DNA of 47,223 nt. Source: Bdellovibrionia bacterium (GTDB taxonomy: Bacteria; Bdellovibrionota; UBA1018). Both the position numbers and the translations under genes were made by a program. Below, in pieces: positions 12,737 to 20,576 of this stretch (position 1 is its first letter; every line of letters begins with the position of its first letter). The stretch is taken from NCBI GenBank assembly GCA_044347055.1, contig JBIIXZ010000001.1, forward strand, positions 1-47,223. Direction: 5' to 3'. Below the pieces are notes generated by a model. The model did not search any database. It was not told the DNA's origin and saw only the letters and a program-made list of their open reading frames with translations.

Positions 12737-13315
12737 TCACCAACTCCGTGAACGAATCGTGCCGGTGTCCTCGTCGAGCGAGCCGCCCCTCCAGCCGTCG
12801 CCCCGAGAGGCGGGCTGGCGAGTCTCTGGCTCAGCCGGCTTTTTTTCCGCAACGGCGTCATGGCCTTCCGGATAGAGCTGCGAAGGCCCGGGCTCGGTCT
12901 GGTAGGCGACCAGGGGTGAGCCCGCGGGAGAGTTCGAGATCACGAATTTGTCGTATTCCTTTCCACTCCTCGGATCGCGGTAGACCCTGAAGCCCGGCTC
13001 CAAGGAAATGCCGAGGACATTTCGGCGAACGAGCTGCTCGTTCGGGCTGGAGTGGAAGCGATAGCCGATGACCATGACCTTTTTCGCGGGATCGCGGTCA
13101 TCGATCTTGAGCGCGAGGCTCTTGGTGCTCCCGCCCGGGTAGACGTGGATTTCGAGGTTTCCTTCCCACTCGATGACATTGACCTTCTTGCCGGAGCGGC
13201 CGCGGCCGTCCAGGCGATCATAATCGTCATCGAAACCGGCGGCAAAGCCGCCGGGCCCAGTGCCCAGGGTGATGAGGGAGGCCAGAGCCAGCGAAAGCAG
13301 TGTCGACGCGCGCAT
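12737..13315 (-). CDS. Secreted hypothetical protein
   Basis: 192-aa ORF with an N-terminal signal peptide (MRASTLLSLALASLITLGTG). No family recognised. Confidence 0.6.
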   Translation of the reverse strand: MRASTLLSLALASLITLGTGPGGFAAGFDDDYDRLDGRGRSGKKVNVIEWEGNLEIHVYPGGSTKSLALKIDDRDPAKKVMVIGYRFHSSPNEQLVRRNVLGISLEPGFRVYRDPRSGKEYDKFVISNSPAGSPLVAYQTEPGPSQLYPEGHDAVAEKKPAEPETRQPASRGDGWRGGSLDEDTGTIRSRSW

Positions 13316-13508
13316 GGATTTTCTCCTGTCCTAATCTTTTCGGCTGGGGACGGCTCAGGCGAGAGTGTGTCATTTCTTGAAAATGCAGAGATTTCGGCGT
13401 TTCGGTGCGTCTTTCGGGACACATCTGGCGGGGCTGGTGAAGCTCTGCGATCCTGAAAGGGTTGAAATCTGCGGCACGTCGGCGATCGAATCCTGGAAGG
13501 AGCTCGAC

Positions 13509-14825
13509 GTGCGTTTCGTTTTACCGAAAACCCTTGGTACCACCCTGGCTCTCTCTTCGGTCGTGCTTGCGGCCGAGGCTCATGCGGCGGGAATTTACCG
13601 CGTGACGGAATACTCGCTCGGCGGTGCCGTGGGCGGACCGGACGAGATGCAGGATCAATGGACCAACAAAGGTTACACGTCGACGGGCCAGAACCTGACG
13701 CCCGGAGTAGTGGCCGTGGACGAGAGCGCGGGATTTCCGCTCGGCACGATCTTCAAGGATCCGGACACAGGGTACTGCTACATTGCAGCCGACCGGCACG
13801 GAAACGGAAATCCCCGGGTGATCGACGTCTACCGGCCCCCGTCGCAATACGGATCGACGCCCGGATTCATGTCGCTCGATGTCTGGAAGCAGGGCGCGGG
13901 ACGCTCCAGCGTCGGCGCCACTCCGGAAGCGATCCGCGCGCAGCTCGAGGAATGCGGAGAGGTTCCCGAAGGAGAGTCCGCCAAGGACTGGCTGGCGGGA
14001 AAATCCTCGGGCAACGGCAATTATATCGCCCATGACGAGAAGGCCCGCGGGGGAAAGTCGAAGGATGCTTGCCGGCAGTCCGCGACGATGGACTCCAAAG
14101 CCGAGTGCGATCCGACCCATGAAAAAGTGGCGATTTCCAAAGTAGTGGAGAAGGTCGTGAGCGATGTGGGTACCCGGTCGGTCGAAGCGAAGGGAAGGCA
14201 GGAGGCTGCCGCAGCCCTGGCCGAAGGCCCTCAGAACATGAAGGAGCCTTACTCGGCCGCACTGCGCGCCGCCGGGCACGGCGAGAATGTGCTCACGACC
14301 GCCGGTCAGACTAATCTTCTCGAGTCGATGGGCCAGTTTGAGCGAGCCCGCCTCCATCACCAGATGCGTCGCAAGCTCGCGCGCGAGATCGAGAGAGAGA
14401 AGCAGGAGGTCCAGTCGGCAACCGCCGACGAGTCCGACCTGGCGAGCTCCGGCCAGGAGGAGGGCAGCACCTATGCCCTGAAAAGCAGGACGGTTCGAAA
14501 GTTCGAGATGAATTCTGCCGGAACGGTCAAGGGCCAGCAGTGCAATGTCCAGACGGATCCCGGGTGCCGGATGGCAAAGATGAAGCGTCGCGACGGCTTC
14601 GAGCAGAAAAAGAAGCATGTCTCCGGACTCCTCGACGGACTCAAAAGGGACGTGCAAAAGGAGCAGGACTCCTCCGAGAAGGAGGCCCAGCAGGGGGCTC
14701 TCGCCTCGCTTGGTAAAGCCATCCAGCAGCTTCAAGGGGCAGCCCAGGCCAAAAAGCAGAAGCGCGAACTCGCCTCGACGCTGGAGTCGATGCAGGGCGA
14801 GCCAAGCACCCCCGAGCAGGAGTAG
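13509..14825 (+). CDS. Secreted 3D-domain (MltA/RlpA-like double-psi barrel) protein with long charged coiled-coil tail
   Basis: Signal peptide: VRFVLPKTLGTTLALSSVVLAAEAHA. The 3D motif reads GVVAVDESAGFPLGTIF...YIAADRHGNGNPRVIDVY. GGAAGGAG lies 7 nt upstream of the GTG at 13509. The track start at 13365 adds a non-signal extension. Confidence 0.7.
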   Translation: MRFVLPKTLGTTLALSSVVLAAEAHAAGIYRVTEYSLGGAVGGPDEMQDQWTNKGYTSTGQNLTPGVVAVDESAGFPLGTIFKDPDTGYCYIAADRHGNGNPRVIDVYRPPSQYGSTPGFMSLDVWKQGAGRSSVGATPEAIRAQLEECGEVPEGESAKDWLAGKSSGNGNYIAHDEKARGGKSKDACRQSATMDSKAECDPTHEKVAISKVVEKVVSDVGTRSVEAKGRQEAAAALAEGPQNMKEPYSAALRAAGHGENVLTTAGQTNLLESMGQFERARLHHQMRRKLAREIEREKQEVQSATADESDLASSGQEEGSTYALKSRTVRKFEMNSAGTVKGQQCNVQTDPGCRMAKMKRRDGFEQKKKHVSGLLDGLKRDVQKEQDSSEKEAQQGALASLGKAIQQLQGAAQAKKQKRELASTLESMQGEPSTPEQE

Positions 14826-14883
14826 TCCGCAAATCTTTCCGATCCGAGATCCGCTCTAGACATCGCGGAAAAATCGTTTCAAC

Positions 14884-16929
14884 GTGCGTGGTATGAGAAT
14901 CGCCTTCACGCACAACCTGAAGACCAGCACTGCCGAGTCCGAAGCGGAGTTCGATACGCCGGAAACAGTGGCGGCGATCCGGAAGTCGCTCGAAAGCCTG
15001 GGCCACGAAGTGGAAGCCGTCGAAGTCAGCGGCCCGGCGTCGCGCACGATCGCGCGGCTCGAGGCGCTCTCGCCGCAGATCATCTTCAACACGGCCGAAG
15101 GCCACCGCGGCCGCTTCCGCGAAGGATTTTTTCCGGGAATCTTTGAGCAAATCGGCGTTCCGTTCACGGGATCCGACGCCTACGTCTGCACGCTGACCCT
15201 CGACAAGGCGCTGACCAAGAAGGTGGTCGAGGAAGCCGGCATCCGCACGCCGCGCTCGCTCTTCATCCGCGAGCTCTCCGAGCTCTCAGGCCAGAAGCTT
15301 CGTTTTCCGCTGATCCTGAAGCCGAACTTCGAAGGAAGCTCGAAAGGAATCACCGTCGATTCGATCGTCGAGGACCAGGCAGCACTCGAAAAGCGCGCCT
15401 CGATCCTGCTCGCCAACTATTCGAGCGGCGTGCTGGTCGAGGAGTACATCCTCGGCCGCGATATTGCCGTACCGATGATCGAAGGTGTTTCGGACGAAAC
15501 CGGCGGAGTGCTCTCGCCGATCGAGTATGTCTTTGATGCCGCCATCACCGCGCAGCGCAAGTTCCAGCTCTACGACTACACGCTCAAGAACGATCTTTCG
15601 GACCACGTTTCGGTCAAGCTCATGCCGAAGACCGATCCGGTCTACGCGCGCCTGATGCAGCAGTCGAAAATCGTCTTCGAAAAGCTCGGTGTGCGCGATC
15701 TTGGCCGCATCGATTACCGCGTCACCGACGACGGCGAAGTTTTTTTCATCGAAGTGAACGCGCTGCCGAGCCTCGAGCCCGGAGCCGGAATTTACCTCGC
15801 CGCTGCCGCGGCGGGGCTGACGAAGACCGAACAAGTTTTGGAAAAAGTGCTTCAGTCGACCTGCCGCCGCTACGGCATCGGGTACTCCGGCAACGGAAAT
15901 CGTCGACAGAAACAGGTGCTTCGCGTCGGATTTGCGTTCAATCAAAAGCGCATCACCCCGACCGAAGACGTCAAGACCGACCAGGAAGCCGAGTTTGATT
16001 CGCCGAAAACCCTGGAGGCGATTCGCGAAGCGATTCGCTCCTACGGCCACACGGTGATTGATCTCGAAGCGACTCCGGATCTTCCGTCGCGAATCCACCC
16101 GGAAGACGTCGACATTGTGTTCAACATTGCCGAGGGAATGCGCGGCAGAAATCGCGAATCGCAGGTGCCGGCGCTGCTGGAGCTCCTCGACATTCCGTAC
16201 ACAGGTTCAGATGCCGCGACGCTGGCTCTGGCTTTGGACAAGGGCCTTGCCAAGCGCATCGTCGCCCAGGCCGGCGTTCCGACTCCCGCCTTTCAGCTCA
16301 TGCACACGGGCAAGGAGCGCCTGAACAAGGACATCCATTTTCCGGCAATCATCAAGCCCGTAGCCGAAGGCAGCTCCAAGGGAGTGATCGGAACAAGTGT
16401 GGCGAACTCGGAGGCCGAGCTTCGCGAAAAGGCCGCCTTCATCATCGAGCGGTACCGACAGCCTGCCCTCGTGGAGGAGTTCCTGCCGGGACGCGAATTC
16501 ACGGTGGCGCTTCTCGGCGAGCGTCGTGCTCGCGTGCTGCCGCCGATGGAAATCGTGTTCACGCAGCCGGACAAGGATCCGAACCCCGTCTACTCGTACC
16601 AGCACAAGCTCAATTCGAACGACGAGGTTCGCTACGATCGTCCGGCACAGATCGAGCCACGCCTGAAGGAAACGATCGAGCGCATCTCGCGCAAGGTGTT
16701 CACGGCCCTCGGTTGCCGCGACCTTGCGCGCATCGACCTGCGCATCGATGCCCGAGGACAGGTCAACTTCATCGAGTGCAATCCGCTTCCGGGCCTGACG
16801 CCGGGCTGGTCCGACCTGTGCCTGATTGCCGAGAGTGCCGGCATCGGTTACCGTGAGCTGATCGGCGAGATCATGGCCCCGGCTATTCGCCGCTATAAGG
16901 AAAAGAAGAACCTCGAGCTGAAGGCCTGA
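14884..16929 (+). CDS. Tandem-duplicated ATP-grasp protein (two D-Ala-D-Ala-ligase-like modules fused)
   Basis: The two halves are collinear. First half: FNTAEGHRGRFRE...VPFTGSDAYVCTLTLDKALTKK...FPLILKPNFEGSSKGI. Second half: FNIAEGMRGRNRE...IPYTGSDAATLALALDKGLAKR...FPAIIKPVAEGSSKGV. The start is either the GTG at 14884 or the ATG at 14893. Confidence 0.75.
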   Translation: MRGMRIAFTHNLKTSTAESEAEFDTPETVAAIRKSLESLGHEVEAVEVSGPASRTIARLEALSPQIIFNTAEGHRGRFREGFFPGIFEQIGVPFTGSDAYVCTLTLDKALTKKVVEEAGIRTPRSLFIRELSELSGQKLRFPLILKPNFEGSSKGITVDSIVEDQAALEKRASILLANYSSGVLVEEYILGRDIAVPMIEGVSDETGGVLSPIEYVFDAAITAQRKFQLYDYTLKNDLSDHVSVKLMPKTDPVYARLMQQSKIVFEKLGVRDLGRIDYRVTDDGEVFFIEVNALPSLEPGAGIYLAAAAAGLTKTEQVLEKVLQSTCRRYGIGYSGNGNRRQKQVLRVGFAFNQKRITPTEDVKTDQEAEFDSPKTLEAIREAIRSYGHTVIDLEATPDLPSRIHPEDVDIVFNIAEGMRGRNRESQVPALLELLDIPYTGSDAATLALALDKGLAKRIVAQAGVPTPAFQLMHTGKERLNKDIHFPAIIKPVAEGSSKGVIGTSVANSEAELREKAAFIIERYRQPALVEEFLPGREFTVALLGERRARVLPPMEIVFTQPDKDPNPVYSYQHKLNSNDEVRYDRPAQIEPRLKETIERISRKVFTALGCRDLARIDLRIDARGQVNFIECNPLPGLTPGWSDLCLIAESAGIGYRELIGEIMAPAIRRYKEKKNLELKA

Positions 16930-16930
16930 G

Positions 16931-18040
16931 ATGAGTCCACAGATCAAGAAAACACCCCGATGCCGGGCGCGAGACCTGGGCATCCAGATCGGCTTTTATG
17001 AACCCGGCCCCCTGAACGCCATCACGGACGTCGAAGGCGTTCGTGTCGGCCATTCCACGATCATTCGCGGCAGCGGCTCGCGCGGCAGCAAGACGATTGC
17101 CCGCACGGGCGTGACGGCGATCGTTCCGGCCAATGGCGATGTCTTCATGAATAGCGTCATGGGCGGCGCGTTTGTCCTGAATGGCGCGGGCGAACTTGCG
17201 GGACTGACCCAGATCAATGAGTGGGGGCTGATCGAAACCCCGATCCTGCTCACGAACACCCTGGCCGTCGGTGCGTGCGGCGAAGGCGTCGTGCAGTACA
17301 TGACCGAAAAGCATCCCGAGATCGGTAATATCCACGACGTGGTGATTCCGGTCGTGGGCGAGTGCGACGACTCGTGGCTGAACGAAATCATCGGCCGCCA
17401 CGTCAAGCCGTCGCACGCCATCGAGGCGATCGAGAAGGCATCGACCGGGCCCGTGGCCGAAGGTTCGGTCGGCGGCGGTACCGGAATGATCACCTGCGAT
17501 TTCAAGGGCGGAATCGGCACCTCGTCTCGCCGAGTGAAGATCTACGACAACACCTACACGGTGGGCGTGCTCGTGATGAGCAACTTCGGCGTCATGCGAG
17601 ACCTCCGGATTGATGGCAAGCCCATTGGTCGGGCGATCGAGCCGCAGTTCGAAGGGCGGTCGCGCCGCGAGAAAAATTACGGCAGCATCATCGCGGTGCT
17701 CGCCACCGATGCGCCGCTGCTCTCGCACCAGCTGCAGCGCCTGGCCAAGCGCATGGGCCTCGGCGTCGGCCGGGTGGGCTCGATGGCCGCGCACGGCTCG
17801 GGCGAGATCATGCTCGCGTTCTCGACGGCCAACCGCGTGCCGCGCGAAAGCATCAAGCCGCTCTATTCGGTGCAGATCCTCAAGGATACGGCGGTCGATC
17901 CGCTCTATGGAGCCGCGATCGAGGCCACCGAAGAGGCCATCCTGAACGCGCTCTTTGCCGCCGACACGATGGAAGGCGTTGCCGGCCACACCGCCCACGC
18001 CATTCCGATCGACCAGGTGCGCGAGCTCCTGACGCGCTGA
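16931..18040 (+). CDS. DmpA/BapA-type (P1, S58) Ntn aminopeptidase
   Basis: Motifs: NAITDVEGVRVGH, GVTAIVP, and a self-processing-site-like YG|SIIAVLATDAPL. It starts 2 nt after the ATP-grasp stop. Confidence 0.75.
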   Translation: MSPQIKKTPRCRARDLGIQIGFYEPGPLNAITDVEGVRVGHSTIIRGSGSRGSKTIARTGVTAIVPANGDVFMNSVMGGAFVLNGAGELAGLTQINEWGLIETPILLTNTLAVGACGEGVVQYMTEKHPEIGNIHDVVIPVVGECDDSWLNEIIGRHVKPSHAIEAIEKASTGPVAEGSVGGGTGMITCDFKGGIGTSSRRVKIYDNTYTVGVLVMSNFGVMRDLRIDGKPIGRAIEPQFEGRSRREKNYGSIIAVLATDAPLLSHQLQRLAKRMGLGVGRVGSMAAHGSGEIMLAFSTANRVPRESIKPLYSVQILKDTAVDPLYGAAIEATEEAILNALFAADTMEGVAGHTAHAIPIDQVRELLTR

Positions 18041-18062
18041 GCTACCAAAAGGATACCGTTTT

Positions 18063-20576
18063 TCAGATCCAGCTATCGAGCTGCTTCTTCAGGTAATCCT
18101 GGACGTTGGGATTCTTTTTGTTTCGCACTGCTTCTCTAGCGTCCTGGAGCTGCTGTCGAATGAAACTCTCCGGGGGGGCAAATTTGTTGGTAGGATTCTT
18201 CATCCGATAAAGCCGCAGGATCAGCCGCGATTCGACCGCCTGTGGGCTGAGGTTCTCCGGCGCGCCCTTCTTTTGGTCGTAGTCCTTCGCGCGACGGTCT
18301 GCTGAATCGAAGTCTTGGACGACTCTCGCCGTCTCAGCATTCACCCACGATTGATCGATCGCCTTGTTTCGTCCGGCGAGCATCTGGTCCCACTTTTTCC
18401 TGGCCCCGGATCGATCGGCGTCCGGCAGGGTTCGATCCTGCATGTCGGACTGGATCTTCACGAGAGCGTCCTTTCTGGCCTTGTCGTCTGTTGTGTCGAG
18501 CAGATTGAAAGAGCCAGCGCCCCAGGCATCAAAGTGCCGGTGGGCCTCAAAATCCTTGAGTAGGCCCTCTGCCTTGCCGAGCCGGTCCGCATAGGTCTTC
18601 TTCTCGGCGAGCTCCTTACTGACGCTCTTGAGAGTGGACACGTTCGCCTGAACGCGCGCGTAATCTTGCCTCAACTTGTCCTGCGCGCGATCATCTTTCT
18701 CTTTCGTGATTTGATCATTGATCGAGACCAACTGCTTTTCGGATCGAGCGATCTCGGAGGCAATCTGCCTACTGGCCTCGGTAAGGCCGGCAGCATCGGA
18801 GGATTTCAGCTCCTCGCGGGGCTTGATTGCGAGATCTCGAAGCGCCTTCTTTTTTTCCAGCTCCTCAGCGCGTCCGGCGTTCTCGGTGTTCGCGCGATCT
18901 CCGGAAGTGATCTGATCCTGCTCAAACACTCGGTCGAGTAGCTGTTGCCGTTCCAGACTTTCCTGGCCCTGTGGTTTCTCTGCAACCTTGATGGATGGTG
19001 CTGCCGATGAAGGTTTCATCGGGTCGAGGTTCGGGCTGGGCTTTGCCGCAGGTGTTGCAGTCACACCCAATCGAGTGAGCTCCTGGTCGATCGCCTGAAC
19101 CAGTTTCTTCCGCCGGTTCGGGTTGCCTCGATCCTCCGCCACACCCAAGAGACGGTCTTTTGCTTTTTGAAGGCGGTCAACTGTCGGCTGATGTTCGGAT
19201 GAATTCGGATCGACATCCTTGGCAAGTGTCAGAGCTTCTTGGGCCTGATCGACCGGGCGCGGACGCCTCGGGCGGACTGGAGCTTCCGCTGTCGCGGGTG
19301 GCGCTGACGGTGCGGCAGCAGGCGCTTCGGCCACCGGTGTCGCGGCAGGCGCGTCCGTGGACGGTGCCGGAGTCTCGGTTCCGCCACTCGCCGGCGCAGT
19401 CTCGGAAGCAGGGGGCTTCGAAGCTGATTCCGCGACGGCCTGAGGCGCCGCCTCGGAAGTCGCCGGCGTCACGCCGAGGTACTGAGCAATTGCAGCCTCG
19501 CAAAACTTCGGCTCATTCTCGAAAGCCTTCGAGCGGAGCGCGAGTTCAAATGCCAGGCGAGGACAGTAAAGCAAAGTTCGGCTCAGAAGCCCGGGGTCCT
19601 CGACCTTGACCTGGCGCGCGAGTGCGGCGACGTCGATCTTCAACTGTTCAAACGGAGGACCGCTTCTGAAGCGCCTGGGAGTGCCGCAAGCCTGCGCGAG
19701 TGCCGGAAGATCTCCTTGCTGTAGCATCTGCGGACCGGCTCCTTCTCCAAAAACAGCCGCGAGCGACTGGTCAACGAGGCCTCCTGGTGACCAAGAATTC
19801 GAGGTATTCAGAAGATCGCTCGCCTTTGCGCCGAGCCTCGAAGGAACGCCGCTTCCGACGCGATGTTGGGTGGCGTTCATCAGTTGTGCGGCAGCTGATG
19901 CAATCGCCTGTTTGTCTTCAGTGGATGCTTCCGAGTACGGCGACAAGAATGCCTGCATTCCCAGGAGGTAATCCTCGATTCGTTCGTCTTCGCAGGCGAG
20001 GACAATTTGCGCGGGAGGAAGCGACTGCTGATTTGTAGTGGTCGTGGTGGTCGTCGCGGCGCCTGCTGCCGCCGGCGCCTTGGCCTCGCATGCGGTGCAA
20101 GGCTTGCCAGCTGCCGAAGCGGACTCGTTCAGCTCCTGCACCTTCTTGGCCAAAGAGGCATCTTCGGCTGGTGCAGGTTGATATAAACCCTCGGGAGCCG
20201 CCTCTCCGACCTTGTCTCGACCAAAGGCCTTCCGAACTCCGCCCACCACTTCGCGGCCTCCATCGACGACTCCGCCCGCTACTCCTCCGATGACCTTTCC
20301 CCCGCCTTTGACGACGCCTTTTCCGATCTGGAAAATTCCGCGCCCGACTGCGCCGACGCCTTTACCGATGGCACCACCGACTTTAGCCAGGCCCTTGCCC
20401 ACATCGCGGATGTGCACAGGCTTGGCCTTGTTTTGATGATGAAGTGGAAAGCTGCTCGACGGCCCGGCGAGTGCTGCTGAGGAAAGAACCAGGGTTGCCG
20501 CTATGGCGAGACGGCTGGAAGCCCGCCGAACGCGTGATCGGGCCGCAAAGGATGGCATGTTGGGATGAACGGACAT
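18063..20576 (-). CDS. Large secreted protein, paralog A (Gly/Lys-rich N-region, Pro/Ala linker, conserved C-terminal domain)
   Basis: 837-aa ORF with a signal peptide (RRASSRLAIAATLVLSSAALA). The C-terminal ~290 aa are collinear with and highly similar to the neighbouring gene 20679..22814. Confidence 0.75.
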   Translation of the reverse strand: MSVHPNMPSFAARSRVRRASSRLAIAATLVLSSAALAGPSSSFPLHHQNKAKPVHIRDVGKGLAKVGGAIGKGVGAVGRGIFQIGKGVVKGGGKVIGGVAGGVVDGGREVVGGVRKAFGRDKVGEAAPEGLYQPAPAEDASLAKKVQELNESASAAGKPCTACEAKAPAAAGAATTTTTTTNQQSLPPAQIVLACEDERIEDYLLGMQAFLSPYSEASTEDKQAIASAAAQLMNATQHRVGSGVPSRLGAKASDLLNTSNSWSPGGLVDQSLAAVFGEGAGPQMLQQGDLPALAQACGTPRRFRSGPPFEQLKIDVAALARQVKVEDPGLLSRTLLYCPRLAFELALRSKAFENEPKFCEAAIAQYLGVTPATSEAAPQAVAESASKPPASETAPASGGTETPAPSTDAPAATPVAEAPAAAPSAPPATAEAPVRPRRPRPVDQAQEALTLAKDVDPNSSEHQPTVDRLQKAKDRLLGVAEDRGNPNRRKKLVQAIDQELTRLGVTATPAAKPSPNLDPMKPSSAAPSIKVAEKPQGQESLERQQLLDRVFEQDQITSGDRANTENAGRAEELEKKKALRDLAIKPREELKSSDAAGLTEASRQIASEIARSEKQLVSINDQITKEKDDRAQDKLRQDYARVQANVSTLKSVSKELAEKKTYADRLGKAEGLLKDFEAHRHFDAWGAGSFNLLDTTDDKARKDALVKIQSDMQDRTLPDADRSGARKKWDQMLAGRNKAIDQSWVNAETARVVQDFDSADRRAKDYDQKKGAPENLSPQAVESRLILRLYRMKNPTNKFAPPESFIRQQLQDAREAVRNKKNPNVQDYLKKQLDSWI

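Follow-up and report, generated by a model that had tools for sequence, protein, structure and literature searches.

A conserved gene pair of a tandem Ddl-like ATP-grasp ligase and an S58 peptidase in Bdellovibrionota and Myxococcota, with possible links to beta-lysine

Tandem ligases built from two modules of the Ddl (D-alanine--D-alanine ligase) type have been mentioned before. In Myxococcus xanthus, two DDL domains were noted in MXAN_4097, which was reported to be dispensable for S-motility, and MXAN_5601 was named as the likely primary ddl (Subedi & Wall 2022, PMC9108774). In a lichen Nostoc, an “MXAN_4097-like amidoligase” was described in an operon with a lysine 2,3-aminomutase and a SET methyltransferase (PMC5987646, supplement), and Iyer et al. 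2009 is cited there for the ATP-grasp ligases (PMC5987646). Neither PMC9108774 nor PMC5987646 gives a biochemical function or discusses an S58 partner. Here we describe a ligase of the same family, with ~60% identity to the Myxococcus proteins, encoded by a Bdellovibrionia bacterium (GCA_044347055.1). In the window, the whole stretch of 47,223 nucleotides that was analyzed (contig JBIIXZ010000001.1, positions 1 to 47,223, forward strand), the ligase gene directly precedes a gene for a peptidase of the S58 (P1) family of N-terminal nucleophile (Ntn) hydrolases. This ligase/S58 pair, hereafter the cassette, is strongly conserved across phyla. The tandem DDL architecture had thus already been noticed for MXAN_4097, and we found no published description of the product of the pair. 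The hemB-sglS-RDD neighborhood of MXAN_4097 is specific to the Cystobacterineae and is absent from the window.

Both proteins resemble well-described enzymes. The ligase shares with the Ddl enzymes (DdlA/DdlB, VanA family; EC 6.3.2.4) the fold and the residues for ATP, Mg, and the acyl phosphate, at ~25-30% identity per module, but it has two modules per chain, an altered D-Ala site, and no dcw context. The S58 partner has the same Gly-Ser autoprocessing site and catalytic residues as DmpA (O. anthropi) and BapA (Sphingosinicella), but it is genetically coupled to an ATP-grasp ligase and, in other phyla, fused to one. BapA and DmpA remove N-terminal beta-amino acids, and their substrates further include beta-Ala-Xaa, D-Ala amides, and L-aminoacyl peptides; DmpA is active as a D-Ala amidase/esterase, and both enzymes catalyze aminolysis and peptide synthesis in vitro. 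Two other systems serve as working analogies for the pair, with no homology claimed. In glutathionylspermidine synthetase/amidase (GspSA), a hydrolase coupled or fused to an ATP-grasp amide synthetase reverses the reaction of the latter, and in Ngg, a GNAT and an ATP-grasp enzyme make the dipeptide osmolyte N-acetylglutaminylglutamine amide. The ATP-grasp subfamilies of these systems are unrelated to that of the cassette ligase, as are the hydrolase folds (CHAP versus Ntn/S58). The carbamoyl-phosphate synthetase large subunit, the only solved single chain with two ATP-grasp units returned by fold search, fits poorly (template modeling (TM) score ~0.2-0.3), and its chemistry and domain set differ.

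The features of the locus, with the evidence for each, are as follows.

14893..16929, + strand: gene for a tandem two-module Ddl-like ATP-grasp amide ligase (open reading frame (ORF) translation, homologs, Pfam and NCBIfam models matching twice)
14893..15888, + strand: module 1 (“N-type”), residues ~1-332 (DdlB alignment, module tree)
15892..15918, + strand: flexible linker, residues ~334-342 (contains the only segment with a predicted local distance difference test (pLDDT) score <50, residues 334-340)
15919..16926, + strand: module 2 (“C-type”), residues ~343-678, the more Ddl-like half (DdlB alignment, module tree)
16927..16933, + strand: junction TGA-g-ATG, with the stop TGA at 16927-16929, one base (g), and the ATG at 16931 (read directly)
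16931..18040, + strand: gene for an S58 (P1) Ntn-hydrolase of the DmpA/BapA family, 369 aa (PF03576 and PDB matches)
17681..17686, + strand: codons of Gly251-Ser252, the predicted autoproteolytic site and N-terminal Ser nucleophile of the beta chain (DmpA alignment)

The ligase ORF is open from an in-frame GTG at 14884 to 16929 on the + strand, which gives 681 aa. As the homologs are 677-730 aa long and begin with MRIAF, the ATG at 14893 is the likely start, with a product of 678 aa. The preliminary description of this DNA had read the 681-aa protein as an internal duplication of a complete ATP-grasp ligase, and apart from the probable length this holds: the two halves are 36% identical in an end-to-end alignment (328 columns, E 7e-62), and the Pfam model Dala_Dala_lig_C and the NCBIfam Ddl models each match two separate stretches, one per half. 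Module 2 is the half that scores best against the Ddl models and the solved Ddl structures. In an AlphaFold2 model built with 42 homologs in the alignment (mean pLDDT 88.7), each module superposes on solved Ddl structures with a target TM-score of up to 0.84.

The S58 protein was also identified correctly from the start, as a P1/S58 Ntn-hydrolase with a Gly-Ser self-cleavage context. Peptidase_S58 (PF03576) matches residues 29-354 of 369 (5.6e-119), and the PDB matches include the Pyrococcus horikoshii DmpA homolog 2drh (1e-97), DmpA 1b65 (4e-73), and BapA 3n2w (1e-72); the closest of these, 2drh, is itself uncharacterized. The segment NYG|SIIAVLATD aligns with the G249|S250 cleavage site of DmpA, and G251, S252, N218, S290-G291-E292, E144, and D146-D147 are invariant in 10 partner or fused S58 sequences. 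These positions cover the S288-type Ser-Gly and the Glu to which the substrate amine binds. No signal peptide is evident in the S58 protein, and both it and the ligase look cytoplasmic. Only one nucleotide separates the ligase stop from the S58 start, as had been reported, and this spacer is consistent with co-translation from one operon. A promoter and terminator scan of 13000-18600 gave no signal above the shuffled expectation.

The pairing noted in the window recurs in relatives. The tandem ligase has >3000 homologs; those of 677-730 aa with ~60% identity occur in Bdellovibrionota, in Myxococcota (including M. xanthus), and in metagenome-assembled genomes (MAGs) labeled Elusimicrobia, and the hosts of the family are largely predatory lineages. 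The window ligase has an N-type and then a C-type module in one ~680-aa chain, ~60% identical to proteins of the MXAN_4097 type. Among 80 ligase loci, each from a different species, 56 have an S58 gene ~60% identical to that of the window downstream on the same strand, usually at a distance of 20-400 bases, with a few kb in Corallococcus and Archangium. Besides S58, the conserved neighbors in these 80 loci are hemB, an RDD protein, and an sglS-like gene, all limited to the Cystobacterineae, and many other neighbor “clusters” of the survey are antisense ORFs of GC-rich DNA. Across 301 evenly sampled Bdellovibrionota genomes, the ligase was found in 68 and S58 in 75: 67 genomes carry both, one only the ligase (a weak single-module match), eight only S58, and 225 neither. 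Two ligase subfamilies (54-63% and 40-45% identity) show this co-occurrence, almost always with the two genes side by side.

Several loci depart from the usual arrangement. At L092 (3968-8325, G084:C4), a module-S58 fusion gene immediately follows a type-I double ligase, which makes a series of three ATP-grasp modules and one S58. At L093 (3974-7771, G169:C2), only a C-type module (336 aa) stands in front of S58, and a 392-aa ORF that by appearance resembles an ISL3-type transposase occupies the place where module 1 would be, which suggests that this ligase was truncated by an insertion. In two genomes (L115 4004-6720 and L116 4004-6694; G294 and G261), S58 is not beside the double ligase and is followed by a distant ATP-grasp gene (24-27% identity) and a small GNAT. 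At one locus (L096 2676-3935, G088:C2), a MATCAP-family gene (tyrosine carboxypeptidase-like, PF08014, 6.7e-100) converges on the cassette S58.

A quick IQ-TREE tree of 91 modules, with support given by the Shimodaira-Hasegawa-like approximate likelihood ratio test (SH-aLRT), answered the question of where the two halves belong. All of these Ddl-like modules are separated from canonical Ddl (SH-aLRT 99). The first modules of type-I double ligases form one clade (SH-aLRT 99) together with many standalone modules and the S58-fused modules, and the second modules of type I form a separate clade (SH-aLRT 98). In type-II double ligases, the KamA-ligase-GNAT type described below, the first module is sister to the type-I second-module clade (93) and the second module is very different. 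From these clades, the N-type module is therefore the partner that accompanies S58, and the C-type module is common to type I and type II.

The association of ligase and peptidase is also seen within single polypeptides. Three of the 301 Bdellovibrionota genomes encode an N-type module and a complete S58 domain in one ~717-aa chain, and the same fusion occurs in Kiritimatiellae, Verrucomicrobiota, Calditrichales, Lentisphaerales, Syntrophales, and Pirellulales. Such fusions lend Rosetta-stone support to the ligase-S58 association. The next gene after the fusion codes for a deacetylase of the HDAC/acetylpolyamine-amidohydrolase family in 11 of 12 loci, and the fusion with its deacetylase (L090, L099-L110) is conserved across seven or more phylum-level groups (61-69% identity). 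The order at L090 (3006-8560, G069:C1) is an AblB-type GNAT (269 bits), the 717-aa module-S58 fusion, the HDAC-family deacetylase, and an MFS transporter. A standalone N-type module is followed by an S58 gene at L126; the other contexts of standalone N-type modules are mostly contigs of 1.4-3.7 kb and are uninformative.

Both modules were aligned with E. coli DdlB, and invariance was checked across 42 family members. Counterparts of DdlB K97, K144, S150/S151, E180, E187, K215, R255, D257, E270, and N272 are found, in this order, in module 1 as K105, K143, S149/S150, E183, D190, K232, R272, D274, E287, and N289 and in module 2 as K450, K488, S494/S495, E528, E535, K572, R613, D615, E628, and N630. 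Both halves thus retain their ATP and Mg ligands, a point that the preliminary description had raised. As these ATP, Mg, and acyl-phosphate residues are invariant in the 42 homologs, both modules should be catalytically competent. We considered that module 1 might be a dead pseudo-enzyme; the invariance of all its catalytic residues ruled this out.

The site that specifies D-Ala is different. It was taken as DdlB H63 and Y216 (with the E15-S150-Y216 triad) and, for the second D-Ala, G276/S281/L282. H63 is replaced by Glu in both modules (E69 in module 1, E414 in module 2), within an invariant AEG-x-RGR-x-RE motif, and Y216 is replaced by N233 in module 1 and L573 in module 2. In module 1, S293 stands in place of G276, and S281/L282 have no equivalent; module 2 keeps the glycine (G634), but an extra residue precedes S640. 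None of the NCBIfam cut-offs for Ddl equivalogs or Van enzymes is reached, with all scores far below them, and only broad “subfamily” models pass (NF002378, 316 against a cut-off of 243, summed over the two modules). The Pfam TTL and RimK-like models match the ligase weakly.

The source genome (2.7 Mb in 320 contigs, 77% complete) has a canonical Ddl of 376 aa on a separate contig (G000:C224, 248.6 bits to PF07478), so the tandem gene is not its sole ddl, a possibility that had been left to be checked. Around the cassette in the window stand genes for Maf, YggS, a SpoIIE-type phosphatase, and QueA as well as low-complexity ORFs, none of which has a connection with the cell wall. With a canonical ddl at another site in the genome and with changes at the positions that specify D-Ala, the tandem ligase is not the housekeeping cell-wall Ddl. 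The source genome also has a third Ddl-like gene, coding for a single-module ATP-grasp protein of 333 aa (L003 1489-3527; G000:C193:6448-10011). It directly precedes a gene for a 342-aa zinc-peptidase-like protein with an HExxH-type motif (HEAGH), and its place in the module tree is with the second modules of type-II double ligases.

The neighborhoods of relatives point to a substrate. Across the 80 loci and a further 40, the only recurrent amino-acid-forming neighbor of the ligase relatives is a lysine 2,3-aminomutase of the AblA type. For type I, a Polyangiaceae MAG has AblB and, further on, AblA, the ligase, and S58 in this order on one strand, with scores of 533 for AblA (cut-off 525) and 272 for AblB (cut-off 205). 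Among the relatives, L052 and L090 have an AblB above the NCBIfam cut-off. Type-I ligases also have a divergent KamA-family gene upstream of them, at five Polyangiales/Sandaracinaceae loci as well as at the distant representative P0133. Among type-II loci, P0173 and P0203 have KamA-double ligase-GNAT operons, and at P0198 a GNAT follows the ligase. In G029 (L112 5890-8145, G029:C7), KamA is followed after 10 bases by S58, and no double ligase was found in this genome. The lichen Nostoc operon, with its lysine 2,3-aminomutase (PMC5987646), is a further link of this kind. AblB is present in 12 of the 67 cassette-bearing genomes and in seven of the 234 other Bdellovibrionota genomes (odds ratio 7, p 8e-5), although this p-value is overstated because the genomes are kin and not independent. 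The source genome itself has an intact KamA of 383 aa (G000:C3:15198-16343), which scores best against TIGR03820 (AblA), with 507 bits, slightly short of the cut-off of 525. AblA and AblB are known from the N-epsilon-acetyl-beta-lysine pathway of methanogens and some bacteria. Relatives of the cassette occur in operons with genes of both types, but the Abl pathway itself has no ligase or peptidase.

Because the ligase relatives repeatedly adjoin AblA/KamA, AblB, and the deacetylase, we favor, at somewhat less than even confidence, a reading in which the ligase and S58 form a cytoplasmic synthetase/hydrolase pair for a small peptide, most likely built on beta-lysine. Such a peptide would be made without a ribosome or a nonribosomal peptide synthetase (NRPS). 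Each ATP-grasp module would activate a carboxylate as an acyl phosphate and join it to an amine, as in Ddl chemistry, and since there are two such modules, the double enzyme could spend two ATP on two amide bonds, and the outcome would be a di- or tripeptide or a doubly acylated compound. S58 would cleave itself at Gly251|Ser252 and then remove the N-terminal residue of the product, that is, the residue with a free amine that a Ddl-type ligase puts first and that DmpA and BapA enzymes recognize. It may thereby set the level of the product or recycle it. The building block would most likely be beta-lysine supplied by the AblA-like lysine 2,3-aminomutase of the genome. The make-and-trim scheme of the preliminary description, with a small D- or beta-amino-acid peptide as the product, thus stands as the best reading; the stem-peptide recycling and D-Ala chemistry that it also allowed are not supported.

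Several observations weigh against the beta-lysine proposal. The KamA gene of the source genome is on another contig, unlinked to the cassette, and neither AblB (best match 22 bits) nor an HDAC-family gene was found in this genome, which is 77% complete. Genomes with the cassette are not enriched in KamA (57 of 67 against 244 of 301 phylum-wide; odds ratio 1.4, p 0.38), and the genus g74, with five genomes up to 97% complete, has the cassette and no KamA at E<=1e-40. S58 was not found in four of the five genomes with KamA-linked Polyangia ligases. As these genomes mostly have no S58, S58 and KamA are partly alternative partners, and ligase subfamilies may differ in substrate. Co-expressed with a hydrolase that breaks down its product, the ligase would also run a futile cycle unless one of the two is regulated. 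The AlphaFold2 model, confident for each module, gives no inter-module geometry and so no Ddl-homodimer-like packing; with residues 334-340 disordered and a predicted TM (pTM) score of 0.52, the mutual orientation of the modules is not predicted. Finally, in the literature on ATP-grasp enzymes with DmpA, beta-lysine, or ablB, we found no biochemical characterization of any member, in line with the earlier remark that no characterized system with this ligase-ligase plus aminopeptidase architecture was known. Since KamA is unlinked and unenriched, AblB and HDAC were not found here, and the KamA-linked Polyangia mostly have no S58, we infer the substrate from relatives; the order of the reactions and the physiological role, whether as a compatible solute, a store, or a signal, are likewise proposals. 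Co-occurrence of KamA was rejected as a test of the beta-lysine idea, as KamA is near-universal in the phylum (244/301) and does not discriminate. Apart from this, four myxobacterial genomes (G301-G304; Myxococcus, Archangium, Corallococcus) have two tandem KamA-family genes far from the cassette (e.g., G304:C1:93622-96038), with 48% and 32% identity to the KamA of the source genome.

The same mechanism could work on other building blocks, such as beta-alanine in a carnosine-type product, a D-amino acid, or L-amino acids, with the beta-lysine links holding only in some subfamilies. The breadth of substrates accepted by DmpA and BapA would suit this, as would the lack of KamA enrichment, the absence of KamA in g74, and the fact that no abl gene adjoins the cassette in the window. 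Carnosine synthesis by an S58-type aminopeptidase is also on record (PMC9235088). However, no beta-alanine or racemase gene recurs in the 80 + 40 loci, where the AblA-type aminomutase alone does, and we regard other building blocks as a serious but rather unlikely explanation. A further variant concerns S58 rather than the substrate: the ligase would store the energy of ATP in an amide bond, and the Ser252 acyl-enzyme of S58 could then pass the N-terminal residue to an acceptor amine, much as D-Ala-D-Ala is used in transpeptidation. BapA and DmpA are capable of such aminolysis in vitro, the covalent ligase-module-S58 fusion would suit a hand-over of substrate, and the futile-cycle problem would be resolved. 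The carnosine synthesis mentioned above points the same way (PMC9235088). Nevertheless, no conserved acceptor-related gene accompanies the cassette, and GspSA is an example of a viable fusion between a ligase and its own hydrolase, which leaves a transferase role improbable.

A role in the cell wall, with the ligase as an alternative D-Ala-D-X ligase or with the pair recycling stem peptides, for example those of prey, and S58 as a D-aminopeptidase, would explain why the closest solved and curated relatives of the ligase are Ddl enzymes, and it would fit both the D-Ala amidase/esterase activity of DmpA and the largely predatory hosts. Yet the cell already has its 376-aa Ddl, the ligase stays below the Ddl and Van equivalog cut-offs, and it has lost H63, Y216, and, in module 1, G276/S281/L282. 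Genes of the mur, dcw, or amidase kind are missing from the neighborhood, relatives adjoin AblA/KamA and AblB instead, and both proteins look cytoplasmic. The family is patchy (68/301 genomes of the phylum), and its fusions also occur in non-predatory phyla. In M. xanthus, moreover, it is MXAN_5601 that was named the likely primary ddl (PMC9108774). We therefore consider peptidoglycan recycling and D-Ala chemistry, both entertained in the preliminary description, very unlikely. Hardly more credible is a tailing role like that of RimK or tubulin-tyrosine ligase, in which the ligase would extend a protein or ribosomal peptide by further residues and the peptidase would trim this tail. ATP-grasp enzymes of other families do act in this manner, and a MATCAP-family carboxypeptidase gene lies beside the cassette in G088. 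That neighbor is confined to one locus, however, and neither a small ORF nor a target gene is conserved next to the pair; the modules are of the Ddl type, with weak TTL and RimK-like matches, and tailing by ATP-grasp enzymes lengthens C-termini or side chains, whereas S58 comprises aminopeptidases.

From a biological perspective, hundreds of species carry the cassette at ~60% identity, among them every sampled Myxococcaceae-type genome and entire families of Bdellovibrionota, and this conservation therefore implies a selected function. If beta-lysine peptides are indeed the product, they would add a new class to the small peptides that stand-alone ligases make, the S58 “beta-aminopeptidases” would gain a first natural substrate and physiological role, and the Abl (acetyl-beta-lysine) pathway would be extended. 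One can also imagine, more speculatively, that the pair belongs as one branch to a widespread modular toolkit that needs neither ribosome nor NRPS, with which beta-lysine peptides are built, acetylated, and dismantled and which here provides a regulated solute, store, or signal in predatory bacteria. Its parts would be N- and C-type Ddl-like modules, AblA, AblB or small GNATs, an HDAC-type deacetylase, and S58; we hold this wider scheme to be possible but doubtful. Independently of the substrate, the ligase genes are routinely mis-annotated as D-alanine--D-alanine ligase, which misleads the annotation of cell-wall synthesis and vancomycin resistance.

In the window, the cassette is flanked by long ORFs at 13365-14825 (+) and 18063-20576 (-) whose products are rich in Ala, Pro, Lys, and Glu, of low complexity, and without a Pfam match. 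The ORF at 13365-14825 is a putative gene, and the 837-aa product of a flanking ORF has an N-terminal hydrophobic stretch.

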